64,000 nucleotides of DNA. Source: Dictyostelium discoideum (taxonomy: Eukaryota). Position numbers and translations under genes: made by a program. This document shows, in pieces, positions 40,200 to 61,876 of this stretch; position 1 is the stretch's first letter; every line of letters starts with the position of its first letter. Under the pieces are notes generated by a model. The model was given only the letters and a program-made list of their open reading frames with translations. It had not been told where the DNA came from and did no database searches. The DNA lies in the NCBI GenBank assembly GCA_000004695.1, contig CM000154.2, forward strand, positions 1,888,001 through 1,952,000, read 5' to 3'.

Positions 40200-40230
<31 letters not shown>

Positions 40231-40244
40231 TTTATTTTTAAAAA

Positions 40245-41556: not shown

Positions 41557-41684
41557 GTTTGTATTTTTAAAATTAATAATTAATTAATTAATTAAATAAT
41601 AATTAATTAAATAATTAAATATTAATATCTCTTTTTTTTTTTTTTTTTTTTTTTTTCTTTTTTCTCATACAAATATTTATTTAG

Positions 41685-41809
41685 AATTTCCTTCAAAAAT
41701 TTTATTCAATTTCTTTAGTCCATTACATGTTTTAATGATGATTTTATCAAGTCCTGAATTTGAAAAATTTTTAACTTTTACAATTTTATCAATTATAATT
41801 TCATTAATG
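41685..41809 (+). CDS. Probable exon 2 of the same membrane protein (KFPSKILFNFFSPLHVLMMILSSPEFEKFLTFTILSIIISLM)
   Basis: Acceptor tatttag|AA follows a long poly-T tract. Hydrophobic TM-like coding in frame with exon 1 phase. Donor ATG|gtattt. Confidence 0.35.
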
Positions 41810-41837
41810 GTATTTATTTTTATTTTTTATATTTATA

Positions 41838-41874
<37 letters not shown>

Positions 41875-41966
41875 ATTTATATATATATAATTTAAATTAA
41901 AATAATATATATTAACCTTTGTGAAAAAAAAAAAAAAAAAAAAAAAAGTTTTATTTCTTTGGTGAG

Positions 41967-42320
<354 letters not shown>

Positions 42321-42346
42321 TAATAATAATAAAACTTGTAAATATT

Positions 42347-42377
<31 letters not shown>

Positions 42378-42721
42378 ATTTCCCATTTGTAATTGAGATT
42401 TTTTATTTTTTTTAAAAATATTATCTATATATTTTAAAATTTTTAATTTCATCAATTTCAATACCTTGTTTTCTATTTATTTCATTTTGTTCTTCTTGTA
42501 TTCTAATTTTTAAATTCTTTTTCTTTTGTTTTGGAGTATGATTGAATTCAATTACATTTGGGAAAGTGATAAAAAAGACTTTTTTTTTTTAAAAAAAATA
42601 ATTGCAAAATAAAAAATAAATTAAAAAAAAAGGTAAAGTTTAATTGTTAATAGTGATTTTCACAAATTATTTTTTTTATTATTATCATTATTTTTTTTTT
42701 TTTTAATAATAATAATTATTA

Positions 42722-42846
42722 TTATTTAAATACACATACCTTTACTAATATTATTGCACTAAAGACAGATACTAAACCAGCAGGGAAAAATTTACCAGAA
42801 TTTACAAATCTCATTCCCATTATAATTAAAAGTACCAATGATAATG
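42722..42846 (-). CDS. TMEM14-family small membrane protein, exon 2 (ALSLVLLIIMGMRFVNSGKFFPAGLVSVFSAIILVKVCVFK-stop)
   Basis: Matches the TMEM14 C-terminal helix region (…MGMRFYHSGKFMPAGL…). Acceptor aattttag|CA. Confidence 0.7.
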
Positions 42847-42974
42847 CTAAAATTTATATTAAAAATAAATAAATAAAATGAATATTTAATTTTATTAATT
42901 AATTGATTGATTTAAATAATATATATATGTGTGTGTTGTTTTAATATTTTTTTAAAAATTAAATAAATAATTAC

Positions 42975-43149
42975 CCATTGTTAATTGTGTACCATTCTTT
43001 TTATTGGTGGTAGTAAGGTTAGCACTATAACCAACTAATAAACCACTAAGTAAACCCATGATAAGAGATGGCATTGAATTTGCTTTTAAGTAACCAATCA
43101 ACCCACCAATTGCAAGTAAAATTGCATATGCATAAACTAATGTTGTCAT
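42975..43149 (-). CDS. TMEM14-family protein, exon 1 (MTTLVYAYAILLAIGGLIGYLKANSMPSLIMGLLSGLLVGYSANL...)
   Basis: Matches the TMEM14 N-terminal helices ([30 protein letters not shown]). Donor G|gtaatt. Confidence 0.7.
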
Positions 43150-43529
43150 TTTCTTTTCTTTTTTTTTTTTTAAGTATCTTTTTCAAATTATTATTTTTTT
43201 TTTTGTGATTAAAAATTTTTAATAATATAAAAAAAAACAAAAATAAAAAAAAAAAAAATTGATGATGATTTTTTTGATTTTTAATTTGTAAAAATAAAAA
43301 AAAATAAAAAAAATAAAAAAAAAAAAAAAGAACTGTTGGGAAAAGTCAAAAAAATCATATGATATTTGTCATTAATTTCAAAATAAAATAATAATTTTAA
43401 AAATAATTATATTTATGCGTTTTAGAAAATTCACAAAGGAGTTTTTTTTTTTTTTTTTTTTTTTTTAATGTAAACAAGTTTTACATTTTATTTATTTATT
43501 TAATTATTTATTTATTTTTTATATTATAA

Positions 43530-43564
<35 letters not shown>

Positions 43565-43769
43565 TCACATAACCTGTTTGAAAAATTCAACTCCTACCAT
43601 AAGAACCTTATAAAAAAAAAACTCCTTTGTGGTTACCTTACATTTAATTTTTAAAAGTTAGGGAAAAAAAAAAATAAAAAAAAAAAAAATGAAAAAAATG
43701 GTAAGAAATATGCAACTAACTCCCGATTATTATTTTTTTTTTTTTTTTTTTTTAATACTTTCAACAGGT

Positions 43770-43804
<35 letters not shown>

Positions 43805-43953
43805 AAAAATAAAAAAATTAATTAATTTATCTTTGATTAAAAAAGATGATCGGATAAAATTCAAAGCTTAAAAAAAAAAAAAACCCTCTAAAAGTAAAAG
43901 GAAATACTTCTTTTATTTTAAACTGATAAAAATCCGAAAAGGACCCGAAAGAG

Positions 43954-44007
<54 letters not shown>

Positions 44008-45040
44008 TTTTTTCCCCTTTTTTATTATAAAAGCTTGTCGCCAGAGAAAAATAAAAAAAAAAAAAATAAAAAAACCCGATAATCTCAGATCTGTTGAAAT
44101 GGTAATAAAAGGTTCATAAAAAAAAAAAAAAAAAAAATATCTAATTTACGTTGCAAATTGGGCAATTAACGACGCGTCACTTGTTTTTTTTTTTTTTTTT
44201 TTTTTTCGTGTGATTAATTAACAACATGATTAAAAAAATAAAATGAAAAAAAAAAATAAAATAAAATAAAATAAAAAAAAAAATAAAAAAAATTCTACAA
44301 CCTTGTAAATTAAAAAAAAAAAAAAGGTGGGCATAATTATCAAACTTGGTCCACTTTTCGTAAATTTTTTAAAATTTTTTAAATTTCGTACTATGCGGAA
44401 AAGTCTCTCTTGATTTTTTTTTTCTTTTTTTTTTATACAAAATTTTTTTTCATTTTTTGATAGTAAAAAGATATTTTCATCGAGGCATAATCGAAAAAGT
44501 GGATGGTAGATCCCAGTTAATCGCGATTAAGTTGATTTTTTTTTTTTTTCTTCACTTTTTTTTCACTTTTTTTTATTTTCTTTTTTTTTTTTTTTTTTTA
44601 ATTTTTATTTTATTTTATTTCACAATATTAGGTCGAGTCAACAATTAGATAAACACATTTTAGTGTATTCATAATCTTCTTTTTTTTTTTTTTTCTTTAT
44701 TTTTTAAAATCAAAAAAATCAAATAAAATAAAATTATTCATTTAAATTGCATTTAATAAAAAAAATAAAAAAAATAAAAAAATTAAAAAAAAAATAAAAT
44801 CTAAAAATAGAAAACTATAAATAAAAATTTTGACACCAAACAGAGAAAAAAATAAAAAAAAAAAAAAATAATAAAAAATTATTTTCAAACCAACTTACAA
44901 CACATTACAATTAAAAATAAATAACCTCATATAGTTTATTTAATCCTACTCTCATATTTTATTTCTACAAATTTAAAATAGTCTCAAAATCAATTTTCTA
45001 TTGGTTATTCAAATAATAAAAACAAAAAAAAAAAAAATAA

Positions 45041-45078
<38 letters not shown>

Positions 45079-45711
45079 AAAACTTTCACAAATATACAAC
45101 GAACCTACCAATTTAAGAATAAAATATCTAGCTATATAAGCGAATTATTCACTTTTTTCATATAAATCAATAATCAATAATTAAAAGAATAAAAAAAATT
45201 TAAAAATTTAAAAAATATAAAAATATAATAACAAAAAAAAAAAAAAAAAAAAAATTTAAACATAATAGTAATAAATATTGAATAGAAAAAATAAACAAAA
45301 AAAAAATAAAAATAAATAAATAAATAAATAAAATAATAAATATATAAATAAATAAATAAATAAATAAATATATAAATAAATAATAAATAAATAAATTAAA
45401 TACATTAAATAATTAATTAAATAAATAAAAATAAATAAAAATAAATTAAATAAAATAAATAAATAAATAAATAAATTAACACAAATAAATATATAACTTA
45501 AAAATTAAAAATAAAATTATTAAATAGGAAAATAACAAAAATAATAGATAAAATAAATATAATTAAACTAAAATAAAATAAATTATACCAAACAAAAACA
45601 AAATAACAAATAAAATAATAAAAAGATATTAAAATAAATTAAAAAAAAAATTAAAAAAAAAATAAAAAAAAAAAAAGATAATTTGAATCAAAAATAAATT
45701 GGTTGATTGGG

Positions 45712-45765
<54 letters not shown>

Positions 45766-45768
<3 letters not shown>

Positions 45769-46884
45769 TTAACTCAAGATGAACATAGAGAGGCATGTAG
45801 AGTTTACATGCAAAAATATAGAAGTAAACCAGAGAATAGAGAAAAGATAAGACAACAAAATGCAGAATATAGAAAAAGAAAGAAGCAAGAATCAATTAGA
45901 CAAGTTACAGAGATTGGATCATTAGAAACTACTCTCGATAGTCAAAACTCTAGAATCAGTCAATTGGAAAAACAATTGATTGAATCAAATTTTAAAGTTA
46001 ATTTATTTGAAAAAGAAAAATTAATACCAAAAAATTATTTAAATATTATCAACACTTTAAGATTACAATTAACCAATGCTCAAAATGAAATTGAAGAACA
46101 AAAGAATACAATTTCATTCAATCATCAACAACAACAATCACTTCAACATCAATTACAATCTTTACAATTACAACAACAACAACAATTGGAATTAATAAAT
46201 GCTTATAGTGGTGCCACTAATAATAATAGCAATAATAATTTAACATCACCATCTTCAACTAGTTCATTTTCATTACCACCAACTCCAACTTCTTCAAATG
46301 TTCCATTACAACCATCATTTCAAAGTTCATTCTCTGCTATGAATAGTTTAACAAATGAACAACTTCAACCACAATCACAATCACAATCACAATCACAATC
46401 ACAATCACAATCACAATCACAATCACAATCACAATCACAACAACAACAACAACAACAAAAACAATCACAAAATGTAAATAAAAAACAAAAGATAGTTGGA
46501 TTATTTAATCAAGAATCTAGTCCATCCTCGTCATCATCATCACCATCATCATTTTCAAGTCCACCATCATCTCCTTCACTTCAATATCTTCCATACTCTC
46601 CAGCTTTACCAAATTCAATGACAAATTCTCCATCACCTACTCCAAGTGTAAGCGGTGGTGGCGGTAGTAGTGCTGTATCAACTCCACAAATTTCTTCAAA
46701 TTATTCCAATACAAGTACTGGTAGTTTATCCTCTCTAGTTCCTTTTGAAGAAAATGGCTCAAATATTGTTTCATTTAAACAAACTAATCATTTCACTCTA
46801 GATCTCTTATGTGAGGTACTTCAAAGCGAAAAATCTTTACAGCATACCACCATCACCTTTCCAAGAAAAAAGAAATTTTGGTGA
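45766..46884 (+). CDS. bZIP-like transcription factor (basic region REKIRQQNAEYRKRKKQ followed by a heptad Leu repeat) with (QS)n and Ser/Pro-rich low-complexity C-terminus
   Basis: ATG at 45766 follows a 60-nt poly-A tract. The track's upstream extension is a poly-K artefact. N-x2-AE-YR-KRKK fits the bZIP basic motif, and L/L/L spaced every 7 follows. Confidence 0.45.
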
Positions 46885-47068
46885 TTTTAAAACAAGTATT
46901 GGTTTTGTTTTAAATGATATTAAATTATAAAAAAACAAACAAACCCAAACGAACTAACAAACAACAAGCAAACAAACAATATTTTTTCAATTTTATTTTT
47001 ATTTTTTTTTATATTTCTAATTAATAAAATATTATTTTATTCCATTAATTTATTATATCTTTTGTTTG

Positions 47069-47109
<41 letters not shown>

Positions 47110-48039
47110 CTAAAAATAAAGAATAAATATAAAACATAATCATTATGGTTTAAAAATAATATTTTTTTAAACTATTTTATTTTTATACATTTAATATTTT
47201 ATTTATTTTACTTTTTTTAATTTAATTTATTTTATTATATATTATTTATTTCTTCTTGGTCAGAATCTTCAGAACCTTGGCTTGAATCTTCTTGGTCAGT
47301 TTATTCTTGACCATAATTTTAAAGTTGTTGTTGGAATATTATTTAGCATTTAGTTAAAGAGATCATTAATGTTACTTGGGCCAAAAGTTTTAAAACCATC
47401 TAATAGTTTTGATATTTTTTCCTTTAACCAAACACATTTACGAATAATATTTTTATTTTGTACCCATTATATCAGATAAGCCTTTTAAAAAAATAGTCTT
47501 TCATTCTCTGTCCAGTTTGAACCCTATTTAATTATAATTTGAATAAAAGTATTAATGATGATCACCACTACTTGGTAATTTCTATCACCACTACCCCATT
47601 TTAAAAAATTAATTAAATTGTATTTGTAGAAAAAAGAAAAAATTAAAATTAAATGAAGAAAAAAAAAAAATATAATTTTGGAAAAAAAAAAAAAAATTAA
47701 TTTTGGAAAAAAAAAAAAAATTTAAAATTAATTTACAAGAATTCAACTCCATACACAATTTTATATTTTTTTTTTATTTTTTTTTTTTTATTTTTAAATT
47801 AAGCTTTATAAAATATGTTTATAGTTAAAATTTTTTTTTTTTTTTTTTTTAAATTTTTTTTTTTTTTTTTTTTTTCAAGTTTTTTTTTTTTTATTTCTAT
47901 AAAATAAAAATACAAACATATAAATTCAATTTATACAAATAAATAATAAAAGATAAAAAAAAAAAAAAAAAATGGAATTTTTGTAAGTGTAATTTAAAAA
48001 ATTATAAAAACAATATATTATGAGGAAGAATTTTTTTTT

Positions 48040-49600
48040 TTAGATAAAACAATAAACTTTGTAATGCAATAAATTTGCATCATAAAAAACTTTAATATCA
48101 TGGATTTGGTTGAGAGAATGGTAACCAATGGGAAAATTAAAGAAATATTACCAAAGTTAATATCAACAAAACAAATTCATGAAGAAAAGATTTTATTTTT
48201 AATTAATTTAATTTTAGTATTGTTGGAATCTATTAATTTCATTAAAATTGATAAATAGATAGAGAATTTTAACAATAACACCAATTAATGAAAATAGATT
48301 TAATTTATTGAATGATTATTGGCAAATGTTATTAGAAAATCATCAGTTTTTAAATAATCATTTTATTGAAACAGGAGTATATAATAATTTAATAATCAAT
48401 AAAGATACGTTTGAAAGTGAAGGCAGATTAGAACAAATTCAATTTTATACTCTAGTACATCCAATAATTTGCAAAAACTGTATCAGAAACATTAGCTCAT
48501 AATGCCAAAAATAGATTCAATGATTCAACCATAACTCCAAATCAAATTGTAGACCATACTCGTTTGCTCAATGGTACATGTGAATCTACTTTTTGAATGT
48601 TGAAAAATGGACAATGGATAGAACATGACCAGAGCTCAGTGCTTATATGAACTCATTTAGATCATTCTCTATGCAATGTGTCCAATCGACCACCACTTGG
48701 GATTCAACAACCATTAGAAGAATACCATATTATCGTGATGAACCAGAATATGATACTGAAACTAAATTGGAATTTATTAGATTATTTTTTAATAGTTTGA
48801 CAAATCAATTCTCTAAAAGAACCTTTACAAGAAATGAAAATAAGCAACCATTTGAATCCGAAATGGTAAATCAATTCAATGATAGCAAATTAAAATTAAA
48901 TTATTGTTTAAAATTAGTTAGAAACAATTTCTTGTGCGAAACTGGTAAATTTCAACTTTCAATCAAAGGTTTGTCCAAGTCCCACACCAAGAAAAAAGAG
49001 CAATTTCAGTAAATATAGCAAGAAAATGTATAGGTTATAATGAAGATTCTCGTTTAGATGCTGTAATTTTTCAAACATCTGATTTTCGCCGTAAAGTTAT
49101 ATTTAAAGAAGAAGTTGCCAACTATGAATTTACTCCAAGTTTGGTAAATGAATCAATTAAAATAAAGAATGAATGTGAAGATTTAACACTTCTCCTCAAT
49201 GAAAGAAGATTGGTTCTAAATCAAAATCCAATTTTGTTATCCCAACTAATCGATTTGGCATCAATTATTAAAAATGAAAAACACGAATATAATGCGTTCA
49301 AATAAAATTTCTAATCAACTTAGAATGCAATAATCAAAAATAAAGAATTATTCTGATTCATATTTTGAAAAGGCAAATACTTTCAAATTTAATAAATCAA
49401 TTGTTTCAGAGATTGAAGTCAAATAATTTAATTGAAAGAGAAGGTCTTCCCAATAAATTAGAAAACCTAGATATGGAAAATATTATTGGTTTATATGAAA
49501 TTGAATCTTCAAATGATAATATGGAATGAAAATCCAAATCTATAATTTATTATTGAGGCTTGAACATTATGTGAATCTAATTTTTGTTATAGTGTCATTT
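48040..49600 (+). mobile_element. Degenerate repetitive element / decayed gene, copy A: multi-frame ORF fragments (MDLVERMVTNGKIKEILPKL...; NSFRSFSMQCVQSTTTWDS...; NEDSRLDAVIFQTSDFRRKVIFKEEVANYEFTPSLVNE...; EGLPNKLENLDMENIIGLYEIESSNDNME)
   Basis: Codon-like composition but with frameshifts and stops. Homologous to segments at 51950-52100, 53740-53830 (same orientation) and 53900-54110 (inverted). Confidence 0.5.
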
Positions 49601-49775
49601 CTGGTTTCANNNNNNNNNNNNNNNNNNNNNNNNNNNNNNNNNNNNNNNNNNNNNNNNNNNNNNNNNNNNNNNNNNNNNNNNNNNNNNNNNNNNNNNNNNN
49701 NNNNNNNNNAAAATTAGATTCACATAATATAATGTTCAAGCCTCAATAATAAATAATAGATTTGGATTATTATCA
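49527..49775. repeat. Inverted repeat (about 60-bp arms) flanking the assembly gap at 49610-49709
   Basis: 49527-49590 aaaatccaaatctataatttattattgaggcttgaacattatgtgaatctaatttt is the reverse complement of 49711-49775, allowing 2-3 mismatches. Confidence 0.8.
49610..49709. other. Assembly gap (100 N)
   Basis: Run of n. Confidence 1.
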
Positions 49776-50689
49776 AAAAAAATGGCTGATATAATTAAAA
49801 ATTTATAAATAATAATAATAAATATAATAAAAAAATAAATAAATAAATAAATAAAATTTTAAATAATAAAAAAAAATTAAGAAAAAAAAGGTTAACAAAT
49901 TGAAGCCTTAATATTTATAAATAATAAAAAAAAAAAAAAAAAGTAAGAAAACATTAATTAACATCACATCAAATTTGTTTCGTCAACTTTTTAATTTAAA
50001 TTTAAATGAAGAGATAGAAAATTTAAAATCTGCATATATGCTTATATTGGGAATTAAATCTTTTTAAATGGTTTCAAGTTGGCCCGTTGTAAATGAAATA
50101 ATTGATCTTGAAATTACTGTTGATATTGTAATAGTAATTTCTGTTGTTTTTCTATTTACTGTGAGATTGGTGACATTGTTTCATTATTATTATTATTTTG
50201 TTGACCAGTTATCATTGGCCCATTATCCTCATTATTATAAACTTATTTAATAAACTAATTAAATTAAATAAATTATTACTATTATTAAAGGAAGAAGAAA
50301 ATCTTGTAAATCAAACTCTGGATTTATTTGAAAAAACGGCCCTTGATTTTTTCAAAATATTTTTTAAAAAAAAAAAAAATTAAATGTATAATTATCTAAA
50401 AACAAATTTTAATAATTTAAGATCAAGATTTTGTACCATATCTGTTCTTTTTATTTTTAGATACACTATTTAAATGTTTTAGAATATGTTGAGTTAATAA
50501 AATTACATTTTTTAAAAAAAAATATTTGAACAGATTGGGTAAAAAAAAAAAAAAGAAATTAAAATATTTTTTTAAAAAATTCAGGAATAAATTAATATTT
50601 TATTAATTAGAAATATAAAAAAAAAAAAAAAAATTTAAATGAATAAATAATCTACAAATAAAATTATTTATAATTTTGATTATTCTTTG

Positions 50690-51120
50690 CAACAATTTTT
50701 GATATTTTGAGAGAGCTTTACAGCAATTTCAATAATACTGTACAGTCCATCTTTTTTCGAAATTCTTATCAATTGTAATCATGATAGTTTGCAGTTAGAA
50801 CAATGGCAGTAACTGCTGGTGAAACATCACGAAGAAGGGTATATGCAACACGTTGAACATCAGCAACTGTGATTTCATTAATACGTGTGTATACCTCAAA
50901 TGGTGATAAACGACGACCTAAAGTTAAAATTTGACGACCAATGCCTTCGCAAACTTTACTGGTACCATCGTATTGCATTAATGTGGTAGCTAAAAGTTTT
51001 TGTTTGTTACGTTCTACCTCATTTTTATTGCAACTAGTTGCGATTCTTTGCCACTCCTTCAAACATTTCAGCAACTAAATCATCAACACGTTCTGGTTGA
51101 CAAACACCATAGTTACCAAA
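50690..51120 (-). pseudogene. Partial duplicate (last roughly 110 codons plus stop and proximal 3' flank) of the mitochondrial processing peptidase beta gene at 54800-56203
   Basis: 50769-51074 encodes MLKCLKEWQRIATSCNKNEVERNKQKLLATTLMQYDGTSKVCEGIGRQILTLGRRLSPFEVYTRINEITVADVQRVAYTLLRDVSPAVTAIVLTANYHDYN, near-identical to the C-terminus of the 54800 gene. The 3' part (50700-50830) is frameshifted. Confidence 0.8.
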
Positions 51121-51511
51121 AGAGAAAGAACAAACAAAAAAATAAACAAACAAACAAACAAACTAAACAATAAGCTTGGTTTTTTGGTTTGTTTGTTTGT
51201 TTGTTTGCTTGTTGTTTCCTAAACTTTTAATGAATTCTCTTTATATTACATGTAATCTAATTCTTTTTTGCCAGGACTCCTTCAAGAACTTAAAACTTTA
51301 AAATGCCATATTATTCGGACAAATTGGACAAAATCTTAGAAAATAGTTTTTTGGAACAAAAGAAATTGAAATACCAGTTACTCTTTTATGTATAAAGATT
51401 GGTTGATTGCTTTTGTTTTTTAAAAAAAAAAAAAAAAAAAACGCACACTTATAAAAATAGGTAATAACTATTTATTTTTATTTTTTATTCTATCCTCCCT
51501 TTTATCTTTTG

Positions 51512-51545
<34 letters not shown>

Positions 51546-51949
51546 CAATTGGATAAATAAATGAAAATAAGAAATTTAAAAAACTAAAAAAAAAAAATAA
51601 TAATAATAAAAATCCCAACTCAATTTATATTATACAAACGTATTTTTTATATTTTAAAAAAAAAATTTGAAAATTTATATATTTTAAAGGAAAAAAAATT
51701 CTTATCTAACTGTTTTTATTCTGTTCAAAATATAAAAATGTATATTACTTGTTTTGGTGATTTTTTTTTTAATATTCTATTTATTATATTCATTTTTTGG
51801 ATTTTAGTCATTTTTTGTATATTTTACATATTTTATACTATCATTTTGGGTTGAAGTGAAGTAAAATAAAATTTTGCTACCTATTATGGAAAGGGATCAT
51901 ATAGGTTTAAAAATAATGATTATTATTTGGATAATCTAAAATATAAAAT

Positions 51950-52987
51950 TAAAATAGTAATGCAACTAATTTTGCTTTTTAATAATGGATTTGGTTAAGA
52001 GAATGGTATCCAATTGAAGAATTATAGGAATGTTACCAAGTTTTTACCAACAAACATTAAAATTGATATTGAGTTTTTAACAACTACACGTGTAGTATAC
52101 TAATAAATGAAAAATTAAAATATTTCAAAAATTAAATCAATTTCTTTTTATTTTATCATTATATTATATAGTTTTGGAATAGACTATATGTTTAAATAAT
52201 AATAGTAAAAAAAAAAATAATGGTTAAAAAATATTTACATTCAAACAATTAATCCATCAAAACTCAAACATTCTTCACGACCACTGAGAAAAATTTTAAC
52301 TTAGGCACTATAAGCCCCAACAGCCCAAACTGAATTGTAAAAACCTTGTAAGGGCTGTTCTTAACCCTTATGAATGATGTATGGGCTGCTTGCAAAGTTT
52401 CAAATTTTGCACGCAGCCCGTACAGTCTTTTAAAGGGTTGTGTAAAGCCCTTACAAGGTTTTTTAGATATTTGCTAACAACAATAATACTTAAAAAAAAA
52501 AAACGGTTGCACAACCCATTCAAATTTTTAAAAAAAATTATTCAAACGAAAATTCAATATTAATAAATATATATGAAATTTCATATTTATATAAAAAAAT
52601 AATCAAAATAAATACAATAATTTATAATTTTTTTTTTTTATATAAAAAAATATAAAATCAAATAAATATAAATATATTTTTATCTATTTTAAATTTTATA
52701 TAAATTTTTTTTTTTTTTTTTTTTTTCTATTTATTTGATTTTATTTGATTTTTTTATTTTTGACCTAAAATAAATGTAAAGTTATTAGTTAAAGTTATTA
52801 GTTTTTTTATTTTTTTTTTTTATTTATTTATTTTTTTTTTTTTAGGTACTTTAATATTAAAAAAAAAACATGTTATTTTTTAAAAAAAATTTACATTTAT
52901 ATATAGGATATAAATTTTCCTATTTTATTTTATTTTATTTCCTAAATATAAATTCCTATTTTATTTTATTTTATTTATTTATTGGTT

Positions 52988-53069
<82 letters not shown>

Positions 53070-54110
53070 TAATTGACTATAGTATAATAATTTTTGAATC
53101 TATATTTAAATAAAATATAATTGAAAAATATAAAATAAAAACAATATGCAAAGTGATTTTTTATTTTAATTTTGGTAAAGAGAAAATTAAAATTAAAAAA
53201 AAGAAAAAATTAATAATAAAAAATACTACATACATTCAGGTTTTTATTTTTTTTGCAAAGTCACAAACAATATTATCGTATTTTCTTACCAAATGTTTAA
53301 ATAAATAAATTTATTAACAACGATTAAATATTGTTTATTTTTTAAATACATTTAAAAAAGAAAAAATTATAAACCTTGTTATTGCCCATTTTAAAAAAAA
53401 CCTTTGGAATCTTTGCAGTACATTTTTTTTTTTAAAAAAAAAAAATACCTTGTATTAGCCCGGTTGGGACGAATAGACCGTTCAGCCATTTAGTCCATTT
53501 TTTTTTTTTTAAAAAAAAATTTTTTAAGGACTGTCAACCGGGTTTATACAAGCCCTTATAAGAGATCATGGCTTGGTCGTGTTGTAAAATAATATATAAA
53601 CAATAAAATAAAATAAAATAAAATAGAAAAAAATATTAAAATCATTTTAAATCATATAATGTATGTGCCATATTTGATCTTTATTAAACATTATTTTTAG
53701 TTTTTCAGCTGAAGTCAAAATAAATAAGTTAATTGATAGAGAAGGTACCATGAAATTAGAGAAAATAGTTATTGAAAATATTATTAGTTTAAATGAAAAA
53801 GAATTTTCAAATGGATTTATGGAAATTTATTATTTATTAAACCTATATTGTGTCGATTTGAGTGTTTTCATCTTTTCCAAGGATGAATCAGCCAATTTCT
53901 TTATTTTAGAAGTTGCTTTCTAAGTTGACTCTGAGATTATTTCTAATCCATTATGGATTTATATATATGGTTTTTTCTCTTTTACAATATGAAATCTTCT
54001 TTCATTCATCCTTAAATTTAATAAATTCATATAACAAGCTTAGAGAAATTTCATAGTGGGCAACTTCTTCAGAAATATAACTCTACGACGAACATCTGGT
54101 GTAGGACTTT
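51950..54110. mobile_element. Copy B of the degenerate repetitive element (rearranged: head and Y-segment in plus orientation, X-segment inverted), containing a poly-T60 tract and two hairpin elements
   Basis: 51960-52080 (aatggatttggttaagagaatggta...) is homologous to 48100-48200. 53740-53830 (EGTMKLEKIVIENIISL...) is homologous to 49440-49520. 53900-54110 reverse-complemented (…RRRVIFLKKLPTMKFL…) is homologous to 49060-49160. Confidence 0.5.
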
Positions 54111-54154
54111 GGACAAACCTTCGAAAGAAATAAAATAATTATCAACACACCAAC

Positions 54155-54193
54155 ATAATAATAATATAATGATAATAATAATAATAATAATTA

Positions 54194-54283
<90 letters not shown>

Positions 54284-54298
54284 TAATAATAATAATAA
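54155..54298. repeat. (AAT)n microsatellite
   Basis: ataataataata... about 140 bp. Confidence 0.9.
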
Positions 54299-54611
54299 GA
54301 TTACTCAACTAAAACATACAAAACACAAATATTAAATAAACGTGAATAAAATAATATATATGAAAATTATAAATATAAATTGTTATTTTAGGGAAAAATA
54401 TCATAAATGCCCAACACATACCAAAACACTCAACGGATGAATATAAAAATAAAGACCAAATATCAATACGAATTAAAACGATTTTAGTATGTTTTTTTTT
54501 TCATTTTATTTTATTATTATTTTTATATATATTATTTTTTAACAGTTTTTTTTTGAGAATGTATGAGTTTAGTGTGGATTAATTGCCTGAATGTATTTAT
54601 GTATTAACCAC

Positions 54612-54614
<3 letters not shown>

Positions 54615-54701
<87 letters not shown>

Positions 54702-54708
54702 TAATATT
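54615..54708. repeat. (ATT)n microsatellite
   Basis: attattattatt... about 95 bp. Confidence 0.9.
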
Positions 54709-54799
54709 ATTAATATTATTATTTATTTTTATAAACCTATAATCTGTTCCAATACTAAATAATTTAAAGATAAAAAAAAAAAAAATTAGTAAAAATTTA

Positions 54800-56203
54800 T
54801 TAGTTAAAATTTTTGGAAAAAAATTGAGAGAGCTTCGCAGCAATTTCAATAATACTTACAGTCCAGCCTTTAACAAAATTGTAGTCAGGGTAGTTTGCAA
54901 TTGGGCCAATGGCAGTAACTGCTGGTGAAACATCACGAAGAAGGGTAGATGCAACACGTTGAACATCAGCAACTGTGATTTCATTAATACGTGTGTATAC
55001 CTCAAATGGTGATAAACGACGACCTAAAGTTAAAATTTGACGACCAATGCCTTCGCAAACTTTACTGGTACCATCGTATTGCATTAATGTGGTAGCTAAA
55101 AGTTTTTGTTTGTTACGTTCTACCTCATTTTTATTGCAACTAGTTGCGATTCTTTGCCATTCCTTCAACATTTCAGCAACTAAATCATCAACACGTTCTG
55201 GTTGACAAACACCATAGTTACCGAAAAGACCTGTATCTTGATAACAAGTGAAAAAGGTAGAATAAGATTCTGCAAGATCTTCAGTGGCAACAATTTCACC
55301 AAGGTTTGATGCAATGTTTTTACCGGCGGCAATACCACGATTCCAGTTACCAATCATAGTTTGAATTAATTCTAAAACAAAGTAATCTGGATCAGTCCAT
55401 GGAAGGGCTCTAACAGCAACGGCAAAATGAATCAATGGTTGTTCATCATCACGGACACGGAGTTCTGAACCAATAAAGTCATTGGTGATTGCGGCTCTCT
55501 TTACATCTTTAGAAACTTGTGACATCTTTACGTTTGCGAATTTCTCTTTAACTTGTTCAACGAGTTGTTCATGGTTAACTGCACCAGCAGCAGAGATAAC
55601 TAAACGATCACCAGTATAATTTTCATTGATAAATTCTTGAATTTGTTCACGAGTAATTGATTTAATATTTTCGACTGGACCTAAAATGGTTCTACCTAAT
55701 GCTGAACCTTGGAAAGCGGCGGCGTGTAATTGATCAAAGACAACTTCATCTTCTTTGGATTGAATATAATCGTTTTCACTGAGGATGGTGTCACGCTCTT
55801 GTTCAATTAATGAGGTTTCAAATTTACTATTTTGTAAGATATCAGAGAGGATATCAACGGCATTTGGTACGTTATCTTTTAAAACTTTCATGTAGTAAGC
55901 ACTGTGTTCACGACTAGTGAATGCATTTAAACTACCACCCATATTTTCAATTTCAGTTTCAATTGATTGTGGTGTTGGACGTTTGGCTGTACCTTTGAAA
56001 ATCATATGTTCTAAAAAGTGTGCTACACCATTATTCTTATCAGTTTCATAAACTGAACCACTATCAACCCAAACACCTACACTTGCAACTTCACCATATG
56101 TTTGTTCTGTTGCAACTCTAATACCATTTGATAATGTTGTAATTTTAGTTTCTGGTGAAATCTTTAAATATGATGGGTCAACTGTTTTTCTTGAAAATGA
56201 TCT
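54800..56203 (-). CDS. mppB: Mitochondrial processing peptidase beta subunit (M16 metallopeptidase; inverted-zincin HxxEH). Main exon; the initiator ATG is probably in a separate upstream micro-exon (56486-56488)
   Basis: GVAHFLEHMIFKGT (HxxEH), NAFTSREHSAYY, and MPP-beta-like N-terminal segment SYLKISPETKITTLSNGIRVATE. An in-frame TAG sits immediately upstream of the acceptor ttttag|AGA at 56204-56205, so no Met lies in this exon before the HxxEH region. ATG|gtgtag at 56488-56483 is in phase. Confidence 0.85.
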   Translation of the reverse strand, partial: RSFSRKTVDPSYLKISPETKITTLSNGIRVATEQTYGEVASVGVWVDSGSVYETDKNNGVAHFLEHMIFKGTAKRPTPQSIETEIENMGGSLNAFTSREHSAYYMKVLKDNVPNAVDILSDILQNSKFETSLIEQERDTILSENDYIQSKEDEVVFDQLHAAAFQGSALGRTILGPVENIKSITREQIQEFINENYTGDRLVISAAGAVNHEQLVEQVKEKFANVKMSQVSKDVKRAAITNDFIGSELRVRDDEQPLIHFAVAVRALPWTDPDYFVLELIQTMIGNWNRGIAAGKNIASNLGEIVATEDLAESYSTFFTCYQDTGLFGNYGVCQPERVDDLVAEMLKEWQRIATSCNKNEVERNKQKLLATTLMQYDGTSKVCEGIGRQILTLGRRLSPFEVYTRINEITVADVQRVASTLLRDVSPAVTAIGPIANYPDYNFVKGWTVSIIEIAAKLSQFFSKNFN

Positions 56204-57087
56204 CTAAAAATAATTTAAATTTTTATGTATATATATTTTTTATAATTATTTTTGTTAATCATTTGACATTTTTTTTTTTTTTTTTTTTTTTTTTATATAT
56301 TTATTTAATTAAAAATTTAATTATTTTTTTATTTAATTATTTATTTCATTTCATTTCATTCATTTTATTTATTTATTTTTTAAATATTTTTTTTTTTTTT
56401 TTGAAAGTGTGGTGAAGGTATTATAAAAAAAAAAAATTATGAGGCAAAAAAAAAAAATATATATATATATTTGTTTACACTACACCATAGTTATATAATC
56501 GATTAAAAAGAAGATTTAGATTTTTTTTCTTTTTTTATTTTTTCCTTAAAAATTATTTTTTATTTTTTTTAGTCTTTTTTTATTTGTGTGGTGGGTGAAT
56601 TAAAATAAAAAAATAAAACAATAGTTTTTTTATATTTTTAGTATAAAAACTATATTATTTCATTGAAACCTACAGAAAAGTTTTTAGTTGATTTAACAAA
56701 TAATTTGGTGATATTTGACATTCTATAGAAATTAATAATATATACTATTATGTTTATATACAACTCGAAAAATGATCAAAAATTTAAAAAATTAAAAAAA
56801 AAAATAAAAAAAAAAAAAAAAAAAAAAAACCAAAAAAAAAAAAAAATTAAAAAAATTAAAAAAAAAAAAATTTCGAAAAATGTTGAAAAAATTTTTTAAT
56901 GATACAATGAACTTCTGAATTAATATGCAAAAAAAAAAAAAAAACTAAAACACTAAAAATTAAAAATTTCATTGAAAATTTAATTAATCAAATTTAATTT
57001 AATCATTTTTTTATATTATTTATTTTTTCAATAATTAAAATGAATAATCGTTAAATTGAAAAAAAAATAAAAAACAATTTTCAAAAA

Positions 57088-57141
<54 letters not shown>

Positions 57142-57672
57142 CTTAAGTCTCAGTAACAAACTATTGAAATTTGGTCAAATACCCCAAATTAGTTTTTTTT
57201 TTTTTTTTTTTTTTATCTTTATTCAAAAAAATAAAAATATAAAAAAACAAATTCAAATTTAAATCTGATAAATTTGGGTGAAAATAAAATAATAAATATA
57301 TAAATAAATAAATAAAAAAAATAAGGTAATTAATAATTGATATCGTTTTTTTTTTTTTTTTTTTTTTTAAAAAAAATTCCCCAAAAAAAAAAAAAAAAAA
57401 AAAACCAAAAAAAATTAAAAATTAAAAAAAGGGGGTTAAAAAAAAAAAAAAAAAAAATTTTTTTTAAATGGGGGGGGGGGAAATTTTTGGGGTTTTTTTT
57501 TAAAGGGAAAATAAACAAAAATTTTTTGGGAAATTCCCAAAAATTAAGGGGAAAAAAAAAAAAAAATTTCCCAAATTTTTTTTTTTTGGGGGGAAAAAAA
57601 AAAAAAAGGAACCCCCCCCCCCTTGGAAATTTTAAAAATTACCCAAAAAGGGAAAAAAAAGGGGGGGGGGGG

Positions 57673-57724
<52 letters not shown>

Positions 57725-57872
57725 CTTTAAAAATTCATTTTTTTTTTTTTTTTTTTTTTTATTTATTATTATTTTTATTTTTTGATATTAGCCAAATCAT
57801 ATAAAATTGTTTGTATTAAATATTTTAATCAAAAACCTTTAATATTACTTTTATATAATAATAATTATAATA

Positions 57873-57923
<51 letters not shown>

Positions 57924-57925
57924 TT

Positions 57926-57958
<33 letters not shown>

Positions 57959-58095
57959 TTTTAATTAAAATATTTTGAACATATACTTATTTTTTTTTTT
58001 TAAAAAAAAAAAAAAAAATTTTTTTTTAAAATTATTTTAGATATTTTTTAATTTTATTTGTAAATAATTAATTTGTATTTTTAAAAAAAAAAAAG

Positions 58096-59490
58096 ATGTC
58101 AGAAGCAACTATTGTTGAATTATTAAAAAGATTAGATCAAGCAACTACTCGTTTAGAAGCAGTTGAAAAATCAATTGCATCAGGTGTTGCATCATCATCA
58201 TCATCATCATCACCATCAAGTGGTGCAGCTGGTCCATCATCAGCATCAGTTAAGGAATTCCAAAATTTAGTTGATCAACATATTACACCATTTGTTGCTC
58301 TTTCAAAGAAATTAGCACCAGAAGTTGGTAATCAAGTTGAACAATTAGTTAAAGCCATCGATGCTGAAAAGGCCTTAATCAACACTGCATCACAAAGTAA
58401 AAAACCATCTCAAGAAACTTTATTAGAATTAATTAAACCATTAAATAACTTTGCCGCTGAAGTTGGTAAAATTAGAGATAGCAACCGTTCCTCAAAATTC
58501 TTTAACAATCTCTCTGCTATCAGTGAATCAATTGGTTTCCTTAGTTGGGTTGTAGTTGAACCAACTCCAGGTCCACATGTTGCAGAAATGAGAGGTTCAG
58601 CTGAATTCTACACTAATCGTATCTTAAAAGAATTCAAAGGTGTTAATCAAGATCAAGTTGATTGGGTTTCAAACTATGTAAACTTCCTTAAAGATCTCGA
58701 AAAATATATTAAACAATATCATACCACCGGTTTAACTTGGAATCCAAAAGGTGGAGATGCTAAATCTGCTACACCAGCACCAGCTTCATCAGCACCAGCC
58801 GCCCCAGTTGCACCAGCTGTTTCATCCACTCCAGTTGAATCAAAGAAAGGTCCAGGTTTAGGTGCAGTTTTCGGTGAACTTAGCAAAGGTGATGGTGTTA
58901 CCAGTGGTTTAAAAAAAGTTACCAACGATATGAAATCCAAAAATTTCACCGACAAATCATCAGTTGTTAAAGCTGCTGATACTAAAGTCGCCAAAGTTGA
59001 TGCTCCATCTAGACCAGCCGTTTTTGCTCTCCAAGGTAACAAATGGTCCATTGAATATCAAGTTAACAACAAAGAAATTGTCATTGCCGAGCCAGATAGT
59101 CGTCAAACTGTTTACATTTTCCAATGTGTAAACTCTTTAGTTCAAATCAAAGGTAAAGTTAATGCAATTACTCTTGATGGTTGTAAAAAGACTTCAATCG
59201 TTTTCGAAAATGCCATTTCCTCTTGTGAAGTTGTCAATTGTAATGGTGTTGAAATCCAAGTCACTGGTCGTGTACCATCAATTGCTATCGATAAGACAAG
59301 TGGTTGTCAAATTTATCTCTCTAAAGATTCTTTAGAAACTGAAATCGTCTCTTCAAAATCATCTGAAATGAATGTTTTAATTCCAGGTGCAACTGAAAAT
59401 GATGATTTAGTTGAATTAGCTATTCCAGAACAATATAAAACTTCTGTTAAAGGTAATAAATTACATACTGAATCAACTTCACATATTTAA
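58096..59490 (+). CDS. cap: Adenylyl cyclase-associated protein (CAP/Srv2), 464 aa
   Basis: N-terminal helical domain, central Pro/Ala-rich region (PAPASSAPAAPVAPAVSSTP), and C-terminal CARP beta-helix (VFALQGNKWSIEYQVNNKEIVIAEPDSRQTVYIFQCVNSLVQIKGKVNAITLDGC...). The 464-aa length equals what I recall for Dictyostelium CAP. Confidence 0.9.
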   Translation: MSEATIVELLKRLDQATTRLEAVEKSIASGVASSSSSSSPSSGAAGPSSASVKEFQNLVDQHITPFVALSKKLAPEVGNQVEQLVKAIDAEKALINTASQSKKPSQETLLELIKPLNNFAAEVGKIRDSNRSSKFFNNLSAISESIGFLSWVVVEPTPGPHVAEMRGSAEFYTNRILKEFKGVNQDQVDWVSNYVNFLKDLEKYIKQYHTTGLTWNPKGGDAKSATPAPASSAPAAPVAPAVSSTPVESKKGPGLGAVFGELSKGDGVTSGLKKVTNDMKSKNFTDKSSVVKAADTKVAKVDAPSRPAVFALQGNKWSIEYQVNNKEIVIAEPDSRQTVYIFQCVNSLVQIKGKVNAITLDGCKKTSIVFENAISSCEVVNCNGVEIQVTGRVPSIAIDKTSGCQIYLSKDSLETEIVSSKSSEMNVLIPGATENDDLVELAIPEQYKTSVKGNKLHTESTSHI

Positions 59491-60903
59491 AAAAAAAATT
59501 TTTTAAATTTATAAATAAAAAAAAAAAAATAAAATAAAAAAATAAAAAAAAAAATTAATAAATTTATATATATATATTTATATGTATTAAAAAAAAAAAA
59601 AAAATGATAAAAAAAAAAAAAAAAAAAATAATAATGATCATTAAACTTTTAACTTAATTTTCATTTTTTTAAATATTTTTTTAATATTGAAAACCACCAT
59701 TTAAATGATTTATAAGGAGAATGGCTATCCATTTGGGTAATTTTGTTATTTTTTTTAACTCAATAGCAATTGCTCACTGCAGAAGGGTAAAGTTTCTCTA
59801 TATTGCTTCTGCTATATTGATTTAGTTGCCACAATCTTATTCTATTATTATTTTTAATAGTGCTTGTAAAAAAAAAAAAAAGAAAACAATGATCTTCATT
59901 TAATTAATAGTGAGTAGTTTGGTTGTAGAGGGAGTTAAAAGAATTATATTTTATTATATGTAATTATATTTATATTTTATTTATTTATTGAATAACTATA
60001 TTTAATTTATATATCCTTAATAATTTAATTTAGTTTAATTTAATTTTTATTTTAATTATATATTTATTTTTTTATTTAATTTTCTTTTTAACATATTTAT
60101 ATTTAGGAGATAATAAACTGAAAATAAATAAATTTTCATTTTCATTTTATACTATATAAAATGAGTTGACATAATTTACTAAAAGAGAATAATTAAAATA
60201 ATATAATAATTTTGTAAAAAATTAATTTATATTAATTATTGAAAACACTAAAAAAAGAATATATATAGAAACAAATGATTTTAAAATAAGTGAATAATAC
60301 AAAATAATTATTGTAACAAATAACTGTTGGTTTCGTTAAATAGTTGTGAAAAATTACTATCATAAAACAGTTGGTATGGATTCTTTTTTTAATACTTAAA
60401 CCATTTTCAACTCACTCTCTCATACATTGGTTCTTTTTTTATTTTCACCCTCTAAAACTGAACGATGGTAAATATCAATATATAGCATATTTCATTTGAA
60501 CACACCATTTTCCAAACTCTAAAACCAAGTTTTATATTGGTTTTCAAGGTAAATATTGAACAGAAACATAATTCCCATCATAATCAACTATATCCTCATC
60601 GATTGAATTAGAGTTGGTGAAATCAATGATTGGGTGTTGTTTAACATTTTCAAAAAAAAATCTCAAATTTTATAAAGATACTATCACTCAATTCTAAATT
60701 TGGTGTTTGATGGTTTGTGTATACTAGTACCTCTAGAAGGACTAATAGTATTTATTTATTTTAATTATATTTATTTTTTTATTTATTTTATTTTATTAAT
60801 TCTATTTTTTTAAAAATATCTTTAATTAATTTATTTAACCTTAATTCTTTAATTTTAATAAATTTAATTTTAACATTAATTTATTATTTATTTATTTTAT
60901 TTT

Positions 60904-60945
<42 letters not shown>

Positions 60946-61844
60946 TAACATATGTTTGATTGTTGAGTAATATCCTAATAAAACTGACAATAATAATAAT
61001 ATTTTATTTTACATTTTATACTATATAAAATTAGTTGAAATCATTTATATTTTTCTAATTTAATTATTTTTTAGATATAATTAAATATAATAATTATTAT
61101 AACAAACGACTAATGCTTTCATTGTACATTTGTAACTCCATCTTCTCACCCATTTCCATCAAATTCTCCCTTTTTCATAATTCTATCTAGATTAATACAT
61201 TATTTCCTGCGTAATTGATAAACCCATATTAATCTTAATATTTCCTGTAGTTTTATTTTTGATAGGTCTAAAATTTTTGTTGACATATATTTTTTTTAAA
61301 ATCAAAATGGTTATTTCCTACCACTAGTTTCAATATTTGGTTCCTCTAGAATGTCTCTGGAATTTCTTCTTCCCCATTTGAAAACTCATTTTCACTCTCA
61401 TCCATTTTTCATTAAAAAAAGTTTAATTTTTGACCTTTATTAAATGCTGTTGTTGGTTTTTTTTTTATAAAATAAAATGGAAAAATTTCATTTAAAGTGT
61501 ATTGTAACATGACCACCATGAAATTGTCATTTTTTTTTTTTTTTTATTTTTTATTTAAATTATAAACTTTTTAATAATGCTCCAAAAAAAAAAAAAAAAT
61601 TTTAAATAAAAAAATAATATCCCTAAAAAAAAAAACAACAAATGGTACATAAAAAGTAAAATAATATTTTTGGAGGCAAGATCCCCAATAAAAAGGTTGG
61701 TGAAATAATAAAAAAATAACATATTAACCGCACTCAATGTGCTTGGGAACACATTAAATTTTAATATTTATTGATTAATTTTCAATTTTTTTTTTTCATT
61801 TTTAAATATAATTTGTCATATATTACACGTTAATAAAAAAAATT

Positions 61845-61876
<32 letters not shown>

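Follow-up and report, generated by a model that had tools for sequence, protein, structure and literature searches.

A repeat-rich block beside mppB on Dictyostelium discoideum chromosome 5 as probable debris of a local segmental duplication of an orphan gene

A repeat-rich block in the window (the whole 64-kb stretch of D. discoideum AX4 DNA analyzed) contains two diverged and partly inverted copies, A and B, of an open reading frame, here called P. The initial annotation had left open whether they represent a transposon or a lineage-specific gene family undergoing pseudogenization, which raises the question of how the block originated. The analyses described below indicate that it is likely to be what is left of a local segmental duplication that took place long ago on D. 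discoideum chromosome 5, and not a mobile element. The CAP protein encoded in the window is identical to P54654 of D. discoideum AX4. The features identified are listed in Table 1.

Table 1. Features of the block and its borders, in window coordinates
Feature	Position	Strand	Evidence and remarks
Myb relic 1	47100-47600	-	Myb repeat 2 joined by deletion to C-terminal tail; blastn, tblastn, Pfam
Copy A upstream region	47660-48056	+	blastn to sister-species Myb/P intergenic region, L001 9704-10074, 71%
Copy A of orphan gene P	48100-49529	+	Open pieces in three frames; exact Q54IH0 and Q54IG9 matches
Copy A open pieces	48100-48258, 48263-48499, 48468-48593, 48629-49009, 48949-49302, 49344-49526	+	Frame pieces
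Fold-back palindrome, copy A 3' end	49531-49768		Arms ~88 nt, loop 17 nt; inverted match 49531-49584 / 49768-49710
Myb relic 2 (part of Myb repeat 3)	50004-50080	+	Inverted relative to relic 1
Truncated mppB 3'-end copy, f	50690-51123	-	blastn 50628-51123 vs 54757-55229, 619 bits
(CAAA)n / (TTTG)n hairpin	51126-51229		Abuts truncated end of f; Rfam gave spurious hairpin-type matches only
Short element r	51294-51402	+	blastn to L002 and L007, E down to 7e-17
Copy B upstream and head	51863-52095	+	MDLVKRMVSN-stop, ATG at 51985; head match to A, three-way alignment
Inverted mppB 3'-flank copy within copy B	52139-52275		Inverted matches to mppB flank
GC-rich near-perfect hairpin	52339-52463		Self-inverted, 82% over 127 nt; in ~1.6 kb of unrelated DNA
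Copy B Y segment	53722-53850	+	EGTMKLEKIVIENIISLNEKE...; 79% to 49421-49526; tblastn 53711-53824; alignment
Copy B X segment	53856-54130	-	After Y, internal deletions; three collinear inverted matches to 48957-49388; peptide RRFVQSPTPDVRRRVIFLKKLPTMKFL
mppB (mitochondrial processing peptidase beta, M16), main exon	54800-56005	-	401-aa ORF; Pfam Peptidase_M16, M16_C

Comparison of copy A (48100-49529) with copy B (51863-54130) identified a common head, a direct segment Y and an inverted segment X, with 75-82% identity. All three had been proposed as homologous, and the head (48091-48170 versus 51978-52054, 82.5%, 76 bits), Y (49421-49526 versus 53722-53824, 79%, 91.5 bits) and X (49075-49184 versus 54102-53992, 79.5%, 93 bits) each scored above the best of 30 Markov-shuffled controls (52.7 bits), with collinear extensions of X at 48957-48989 versus 54130-54097 and 49315-49388 versus 53928-53856. 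Every peptide that had been cited was found in the sequence, and the reported stops and frameshifts were seen in both copies, with at least five frame changes or stops in copy A and a stop at codon 11 in copy B. The heads had been placed at 48100 and 51963; the homology holds, but copy B has its ATG at 51985. An 11-mer, CGGACAAATTG, which had been taken as a link to a distant part of the window, occurs at 6783 and 51316 and is a chance match, because its flanks at the two positions are unrelated.

Copy B has lost about 1.2 kb of its centre, where 1.6 kb of unrelated AT-rich DNA is now found, within which lie an inverted mppB-flank copy and a hairpin rich in GC, and its X segment is now inverted and located behind Y. 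The flank copy consists of two inverted matches, 52195-52274 versus 54638-54556 (80.7%) and 52139-52221 versus 54787-54696 (76%), and the mppB flanks of two related loci (L002 and L008) also match 52139-52275. A three-way alignment with the locus of a cryptic sister species (L001) indicated that copy B preserves ancestral bases and an upstream piece gone from A: positions 51863-51971 correspond to L001 10190-10297 (80%) and have no counterpart in A. The dN/dS ratio between A and B was about 1.6, not below 1 (p = 0.92), and therefore B is unconstrained. No gene model on copy B was found in the gene list of an independent gapless long-read assembly (L003), and no relative derived from B was found in the protein searches.

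Inverted copies of one sequence flank a run of Ns (49610-49709) at the 3' end of copy A, as might be seen if the pattern of the block were an assembly artefact. This explanation is hardly credible, because L003 independently carries the same layout of A, palindrome, f and B, matching 47964-49609 at 99.9% and 49710-64000 at 98.6%. In L003, 53 real bases replace the Ns and the palindrome is complete (1566-1757). Furthermore, a short-read contig of another strain stops exactly within the palindrome loop. The palindrome sequence is single-copy in the sister species (L001 11642-11715).

In the AX4 annotation copy A is already known as two separate uncharacterized hypothetical genes, DDB_G0288765 (Q54IH0, 84 aa) and DDB_G0288767 (Q54IG9, 202 aa), both models lying on copy A itself, while copy B falls outside the gene models found. 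A literature search with the two gene IDs returned no papers, and the structure model was uninformative (pLDDT 30). The models span 48263-48502 (P0013/P0011) and 48647-49305 (P0010, with one invented splice). Comparison with the sister species shows that DDB_G0288765 and DDB_G0288767 are pieces of one once-longer ORF, now in different frames.

A search of 5.8 billion proteins for relatives of P returned a single match (P0001), a hypothetical protein from the syntenic locus of the cryptic sister species, and an HMMER scan of 1.84 billion representatives returned only two AX4 gene models, which are pieces of A. The protein searches covered AX4 and the full sets of annotated proteins from about ten Dictyostelium genomes. 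P is missing in two D. discoideum isolates and in D. citrinum and D. dimigraforme, whose syntenic loci gave no match. All matches to P come from D. discoideum or D. cf. discoideum, as in an orphan gene, and present or former coding capacity is indicated by a dN/dS of 0.40 and by a GT..AG intron in the sister species (FIY). The positional orthologue there, ACTFIY_002005 (KAM9995830.1, 326 aa, Dictyostelium cf. discoideum), has the same Myb neighbour and is the best-preserved version of P, with about 80% nucleotide and 66-68% amino acid identity; copy A matches L001 10269-11527 at ~80% nucleotide identity. ACTFIY_002005 has stops in its head region and is without about 370 bp kept by AX4 copy A; it retains a Cys-rich segment and the intron, which is canonical and AT-rich, both gone from AX4. 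The decay of copy A comprises gained frameshifts and stops, loss of the Cys-rich segment and the intron, and gain of the 3' fold-back palindrome. In FIZ, the other damaged sister-species copy, just the 5' 40% of P is left. Some strains still have P partly open: one D. discoideum isolate has an ORF of 219 aa, and the cryptic sister species has the 326-aa model.

The dN/dS of 0.40 was obtained between copy A and the sister-species (FIY) copy (p = 4e-4, 188 codons), and therefore the ancestor was protein-coding. In a short-read contig of another strain (L011), a single additional A at 48976 restores the 219-aa ORF. Together with the dN/dS of 0.4, this reopened frame means that part of copy A may retain some function; a functional full-length protein from A or B in AX4 is not likely. 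A stronger proposal, that copy A would still function as one or two small genes (DDB_G0288765, DDB_G0288767) and only B would be a pseudogene, is consistent with this dN/dS, with the open pieces of 52, 64-84 and 121-219 aa, with the ORF unbroken in another strain, and with the genes called here by both the reference and a new annotation. We consider it unlikely. The open pieces are spread over three frames with junctions too tight for introns; the 202-, 246- and 84-aa gene models conflict and require ad hoc splices; FIY has deleted most of the N-terminal half of the 219-aa ORF; the portion that FIY and FIZ have conserved is broken in AX4; and two D. discoideum isolates are without the whole gene. 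The dN/dS signal may wholly predate inactivation.

The two copies are diverged, internally rearranged and located in a repeat-rich, AT-rich interval, hairpins and inverted duplications are found inside copy B, and the presence of P varies by lineage, all of which might be expected of decayed copies of an uncharacterized transposon or other dispersed repeat family. Nevertheless, an origin of this kind is very improbable. No transposase, reverse transcriptase or integrase was found, and Pfam scans of P0001, an A-specific 127-aa piece and a 515-aa composite identified no family at E<=1 apart from a single chance match below threshold. No further copies of P beyond A and B were found in the window and seven related loci, and no relatives outside the locus in the two protein searches. 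Searches for termini (TIR, LTR) and a target-site duplication found low-complexity inverted repeats only; instead of terminal repeats, the copies are bordered by host sequence, with the Myb/P intergenic region at the left end and the co-duplicated mppB fragment at the right. Neither of the two GC-rich islands in B is related to the other. No differing insertion sites were found in the related genomes, and P adjoins the Myb gene in AX4, FIY and FIZ. The block resembles the known Dictyostelium transposons (DIRS-1, Skipper, TRE, Tdd, DDT, thug) solely as a repeat-rich region with hairpin-forming DNA, and differs from them in showing no coding similarity, no multiple copies and no termini; thug-S, for example, is a multicopy DNA transposon giving rise to small RNAs (PMC4894637).

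The block is an ordinary pseudogene cluster, in which a duplicate of a taxonomically restricted gene is decaying, and not a transposon. The gene-family reading of the initial annotation was essentially right, except that there are just two local members, produced by a segmental duplication that included part of mppB; the finding that had been named as refuting a mobile family, two copies only and an intact single-copy parent gene elsewhere, was borne out in its first half, A and B being the only copies detectable, but no intact parent gene was found elsewhere. As in duplicated pseudogenes, stops, frameshifts and deletions are present in A and B, and the paralogy reaches the flanks, the upstream region of B corresponding to that of sister-species P and the mppB 3' end being present in both units. 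Relaxed selection is indicated by the dN/dS of 1.6 for A versus B; for copy A, with 0.40 against FIY, it may or may not apply. Unprocessed pseudogenes from segmental duplications likewise have copied flanking non-coding DNA, a truncated piece of a neighbouring gene, disabling mutations, one neutrally evolving copy, and a high-identity tract with sharp borders. Unlike typical examples, the block has no intact parent left in the genome, both A and B are damaged, and there are extra fold-back inversions.

The duplication history is indicated by mppB, the intact neighbour that forms the right border of the block (Pfam Peptidase_M16 and M16_C, E about 1e-33 to 1e-35) and has orthologues in all loci. 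A repeat far stronger than those in the initial annotation, and absent from it, is fragment f, a copy of the mppB 3' end. The two units share one order of head, Y and mppB 3' end, with offsets of 3.9 to 4.3 kb, and units A and B are ~4 kb each, both closing with the mppB 3' end, as the 430-bp fragment f in one and the real gene in the other. This indicates that a segment was duplicated long ago and that decay, fold-back inversions and gene conversion came afterwards. In the ancestral state, P (~500 codons, no recognizable domain) would have been head-to-head with a Myb-domain gene, the two lying between a Q/S-rich gene (45703-46884) and mppB. Duplication of P together with the last ~430 bp of mppB would have produced the order P(A), mppB fragment, P(B), mppB, after which A and B would have decayed, fold-back inversions would have occurred and the Myb gene would have shrunk. 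Later, the body of f would have been homogenized by gene conversion from mppB.

The gene conversion step is required by a single duplication because f is 98.5% identical to mppB (50801-51123 versus 54907-55229), while A and B are only ~75% identical (74.7%, compared with 76.0% for A versus FIY and 72.2% for B versus FIY). Alternatively, two events could account for the block without gene conversion, P alone having been duplicated long ago and the mppB 3' fragment having been inserted between the copies recently and separately; the AX4-specific bases that f has in common with AX4 mppB at this high identity are in accord with this, as is the repeated origin of mppB fragments in relatives (two in FIY, one inverted in FIZ). 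However, the left ~110 bp of f (50690-50800) is just 60-80% identical to mppB in sliding comparison and then gives way to an abrupt step, so that f looks like an older copy whose body probably acquired a conversion tract. In addition, (CAAA)n follows both the AX4 fragment and the first sister-species mppB fragment (FIY f1), which hints at a common old junction. We consider two events fairly unlikely and favour the single duplication.

The Myb gene has been reduced to two small fragments in opposite orientations. A minus-strand remnant reported at 47225-47600 is real and is a relic of the Myb-domain gene (relic 1), in which most of the 1081-aa Myb gene of the sister species is absent. In blastn, 47100-47370, 47363-47463 and 47455-47562 correspond to L001 5776-6054, 6378-6478 (89%) and 6716-6815, respectively; in tblastn, 47463-47353 is 73% identical to an L001 Myb repeat (E=2.6e-14), and Pfam Myb_DNA-binding matches L001 ORFs. 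Of another remnant, reported at 50068-50250, only the stretch that overlaps 50004-80 is identifiable, as a second, inverted Myb fragment (relic 2). Relic 2 matches L001 6250-6184, L002 4967-4901 and L007 4072-4006 in inverted orientation (E about 1e-11), with a weak tblastn match (NEEIENLKSAYM / YWELNLFKWFQV). Element r, which in two further isolates of D. discoideum is found in two to three copies where the Myb relic breaks off, matches L002 4970-5089, 5216-5297 and 5437-5504 and L007 4075-4184 and 4627-4711, and probably derives from an exon of the Myb gene. A simple tandem model does not account for the permuted positions of relic 2 (50004-80) and element r (51294-402).

Gene order around the interval is different in each of five lineages, and mppB fragments are found in differing places and orientations; at the ACTFIY_002005 locus, for example, a 7-kb block is inverted and mppB fragments number two. 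In this group of species, the interval beside mppB has repeatedly served as a rearrangement breakpoint. As in evolutionary breakpoint regions and palindrome-mediated rearrangement sites, lineage-specific changes of gene order fall exactly at this interval, and neighbour-gene fragments and short palindromes are found at the junctions, the mechanism here being deduced from end products only.

The 125-nt GC-rich hairpin within copy B is specific to the AX4 lineage and has a predicted RNA minimum free energy of -77 kcal/mol (z = -13). Rfam gave no match to it, and no sequence match was found in the literature searched, including one supplement. A miRNA locus is defined by such a stable hairpin together with mapped 21-nt reads that depend on DrnB. 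It is possible, but doubtful, that two propositions hold jointly: that P is a young gene of restricted taxonomic range, going through birth and death at a fragile breakpoint beside mppB that forms palindromes, and that the hairpin is an unannotated small-RNA precursor or MITE. Isolates in which P is deleted are still able to mate with the laboratory strain.

The repeat-rich block lies within a 7.9-kb interval bounded by a Q/S-rich gene on one side and, on the other, by mppB, which encodes the mitochondrial processing peptidase beta subunit, in a window with a G+C content of ~20%. BLASTN analysis against the window confirmed the initial annotation of two homologous copies, A and B, that share a head, a Y segment and an inverted X segment. 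These matches scored 76-93 bits, compared with a best score of ≤ 52.7 bits in 30 Markov-shuffled versions of the second half, and the peptides quoted in that annotation were all recovered by all-frame translation. The strongest repeat had been overlooked; in it, the 3' end of mppB recurs in truncated form. An 11-mer that had been taken to link two distant sites is present at both 6783 and 51316, but its flanks are unrelated and the link was not sustained. The gapless long-read assembly of a sister laboratory strain (GCA_054883475.1, AX2-type, locus L003), from a series described in PMC12745789, matched window 47964-49609 at 99.9% and 49710-64000 at 98.6%, and the layout of A and B is therefore real.

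Features of the block and its flanking genes, in window positions
Feature	Position	Strand or orientation	Remarks
Q/S-rich gene	45703-46884	plus	no Pfam domain
Copy A	48100-49529	plus	
Head	48091-48170 vs 51978-52054	direct	BLASTN vs window, 82.5%
X, collinear piece	48957-48989 vs 54130-54097	inverted	BLASTN vs window
X	49075-49184 vs 54102-53992	inverted	BLASTN vs window, 79.5%
X, collinear piece	49315-49388 vs 53928-53856	inverted	BLASTN vs window
Y	49421-49526 vs 53722-53824	direct	BLASTN vs window, 79%
Palindrome	49531-49768		arms ~88 nt, loop 17 nt (L003)
mppB 3'-end repeat	50628-51123 vs 54757-55229		619 bits
(CAAA)n/(TTTG)n hairpin	51126-51229		directly at truncated end of mppB fragment f
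Copy B	51863-54130		
mppB 3'-flank copy	52139-52275	inverted	inside the 1.6-kb non-P stretch of B
GC-rich hairpin	52339-52463	both strands folded	near-perfect, 125 nt; RNA MFE -77 kcal/mol plus (z = -13), -62.6 minus
Weaker GC-rich hairpin	53449-53553		MFE -38 kcal/mol, z about -5; ~1 kb downstream of first
mppB ORF	54800-56005	minus	M16 peptidase
CAP ORF	58096-59490		464 aa; exact match to adenylyl cyclase-associated protein, D. discoideum AX4, P54654

Both copies represent a taxonomically restricted orphan gene, here designated P. When copy A, conceptually translated into 496 aa, was searched against 5.8 billion proteins, one relative emerged: P0001, a hypothetical protein of 326 aa from 'Dictyostelium cf. 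discoideum'. With P0001 as the query, HMMER was run exhaustively over 1.84 billion cluster representatives and identified just two further proteins, DDB_G0288767 (Q54IG9, 202 aa) and DDB_G0288765 (Q54IH0, 84 aa), which are AX4 gene models both drawn on copy A. A Pfam scan of P matched no family, a literature search found no mention of either gene model, and the single-sequence AlphaFold2 model of P0001 was unusable (mean pLDDT 29.9). The ancestor of P was protein-coding, because the dN/dS ratio between copy A and the P copy at the P0001 locus (L001), computed over 188 alignable codons, was 0.40, with non-synonymous changes below the neutral expectation (p = 4e-4), and because a canonical GT..AG intron is kept in the L001 copy. 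The dN/dS ratio between A and B was ~1.6, so copy B is unconstrained.

The initial annotation had considered either a transposon or a lineage-specific gene family undergoing pseudogenisation. The transposon reading is not supported: no transposase-like domain was found by Pfam, there are two adjacent copies only (copy number being assessed through proteins), the position beside a Myb gene is syntenic in three lineages, and the ends pass into co-duplicated host DNA without terminal repeats. The 64-kb window also contains no tRNA genes, which speaks against a TRE-type target. The second reading was right in spirit, except that the family amounts to two members created by local duplication. The block consists of duplicated pseudogenes of a well-known kind at a rearrangement-prone locus, not a new type of system. 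The value of this result is modest and lies in annotation and in the illustration of orphan-gene turnover: the hypothetical-protein models DDB_G0288765 and DDB_G0288767 are pieces of one decayed gene, and beside copy A lie the second, more decayed and unannotated copy B, a pseudo-fragment of mppB and two relics of a Myb gene.

The A and B units share the order of upstream region, head, Y and mppB 3' end, with offsets of 3.9 to 4.3 kb. The simplest history would be one segmental duplication of P together with the 3' end of mppB, yielding P(A), the mppB fragment f, P(B) and mppB. The duplication is old: identities over 525 columns common to A, B and L001 were 74.7% (A-B), 76.0% (A-L001) and 72.2% (B-L001). 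Copy B is not derived from present-day copy A, since B shares with L001 ancestral bases that are altered in A, and since an upstream piece (51863-51971, corresponding to L001 10190-10297) is kept in B and gone from A.

An old duplication is in apparent conflict with the 98.5% identity, over ~320 bp, between f (50801-51123) and mppB (54907-55229), which also have AX4-specific bases in common, and a separate recent insertion of f remains a rival explanation. However, the identity shows a sharp drop, being only 60-80% over the 110 bp next to this stretch, and the (CAAA)n repeat beside f has a counterpart in the long (CAAA)n tract after an L001 mppB fragment (5111-5496), hinting at an old junction in common. 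Our reading is that the 98.5% stretch represents a gene-conversion tract, with f being an older copy that would have been overwritten later by conversion in the direction from live mppB to f. The locus would then also exemplify how gene conversion makes a dead gene fragment appear young.

Copy A is without the Cys-rich segment and the intron that are both found in L001 P, while L001 P is without ~370 bp present in copy A and has stops in its head; the parts lost from P differ lineage by lineage. The open pieces of AX4 copy A lie in three frames and leave no space for introns, and the three published gene models of this copy are mutually inconsistent. One of its frameshifts is polymorphic: the A-run at window 48976 is AA in AX4 and L003, and AAA in a contig from run SRR28564541, in which the extra A fuses two pieces into an uninterrupted 219-aa ORF.

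At the centre of the palindrome following copy A, a 100-N gap (49610-49709) corresponds to 53 bp in L003, and a short-read contig from another strain terminates precisely in the palindrome loop. The palindrome probably accounts for this never-closed gap in the reference. The sister species has the palindrome sequence only once, so the fold-back duplication is confined to the AX4/AX2 lineage.

Past its head, copy B can be followed to the position corresponding to A 48275, where it breaks off; the next 1.6 kb are unrelated to P and hold the inverted mppB 3'-flank copy and both GC-rich hairpins. After this stretch, Y follows in direct orientation and then X, which is inverted and begins at what is the X-Y junction in A. 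Such an order would result from an inverted duplication, X-Y-X', with subsequent loss of the first X. The fold-back at the Y end may predate the A/B duplication, because the B sequence immediately past Y is similar to the inverted arm of the palindrome of A.

The stronger of the two GC-rich hairpins in B, located in very AT-rich surroundings, has the same sequence in the AX2-type assembly and is missing from the other six loci. It had no Rfam family, 18 probes gave no Dictyostelium match in miRNA paper texts, one miRNA supplement gave none either, and a metagenome pattern scan for its termini gave 0 matches. A homologue search with a 60-aa ORF over the hairpin, intended as a copy-number proxy, produced no candidates and was uninformative. 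This hairpin may be either the remnant of a MITE or a precursor of small RNAs. The two GC islands of B were also considered as terminal repeats of one element and rejected, their similarity being no higher than that of shuffles.

The L001 locus and the window are syntenic, with nucleotide identities of 80-88%, but L001 is rearranged, and its P is head-to-head with a 1081-aa gene bearing three Myb-like repeats. This gene (L001 5911-9648, minus strand) contains long acidic and Asn/Thr-rich tracts. It is intact in L001 only, and relics of it are found in AX4, L002, L007 and L008. When its conserved L001 Myb ORFs were concatenated and used as a query, no homologue was returned at E ≤ 1e-5, the source protein included, and the search was uninformative. 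In AX4, window 47353-47463 encodes VQNKNIIRKCVWLKEKISKLLDGFKTFGPSNINDLFN, a match to Myb repeat 2 (73% identity) that a deletion has joined to the C-terminal tail. The coding-like remnant reported at 47225-47600 (minus strand) is thus real and is a relic of the Myb gene. A second reported remnant is overlapped by a tiny inverted Myb fragment (50004-50080) and could be identified for that fragment only. A further element (51294-51402) has matches in two other isolates, to a short repeat located where their Myb relic is broken.

Five further orthologous loci were fetched using CAP orthologues as anchors. Two 'D. discoideum' isolates (L002 and L007) have the gene order of the window and a Myb relic, with no trace of P. 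In a second 'cf. discoideum' (L008), P is reduced to its 5' 40%, after which come a duplicated Q/S-gene fragment and an inverted mppB fragment. D. citrinum (L009) and D. dimigraforme (L010) have no Myb gene or P, and in the comparison with window 38000-64000 their mppB-CAP pair has, with respect to both flanks, the opposite orientation to that in all discoideum-clade genomes. One breakpoint of this inversion is inside the interval from the Q/S-rich gene to mppB and the other is between CAP and a PHP-domain gene (window ~59.5-61.9 kb); in AX4, matches between the two breakpoint regions were of low complexity only. L001 has two extra mppB 3' fragments (5111-5496 and 20761-20934), and the 7-kb counterpart of window 39959-47088 stands there in inverted orientation on the opposite side of its Myb/P pair (L001 1-21439 compared with window 34924-55200). 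Because of these differences across loci and the two L001 mppB fragments, the interval from the Q/S-rich gene to mppB is a recurrent rearrangement site. One- or two-step inversion paths between AX4 and the L001 strain (FIY) fit neither the gene order nor the mppB-fragment orientations, and none is claimed. P is damaged or missing in all lineages sampled, and the locus is a compact example of a lineage-restricted gene that was duplicated, eroded and lost unevenly among close Dictyostelium lineages.

The long mppB ORF on the minus strand seems to run through a GTAAGT 5' splice site (window 54880-54900), and a new annotation places the mppB end 63 bp further downstream (L003 6676), an arrangement that points to a 3' intron followed by a small terminal exon. 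The homology to fragment f takes in the start of this putative intron.
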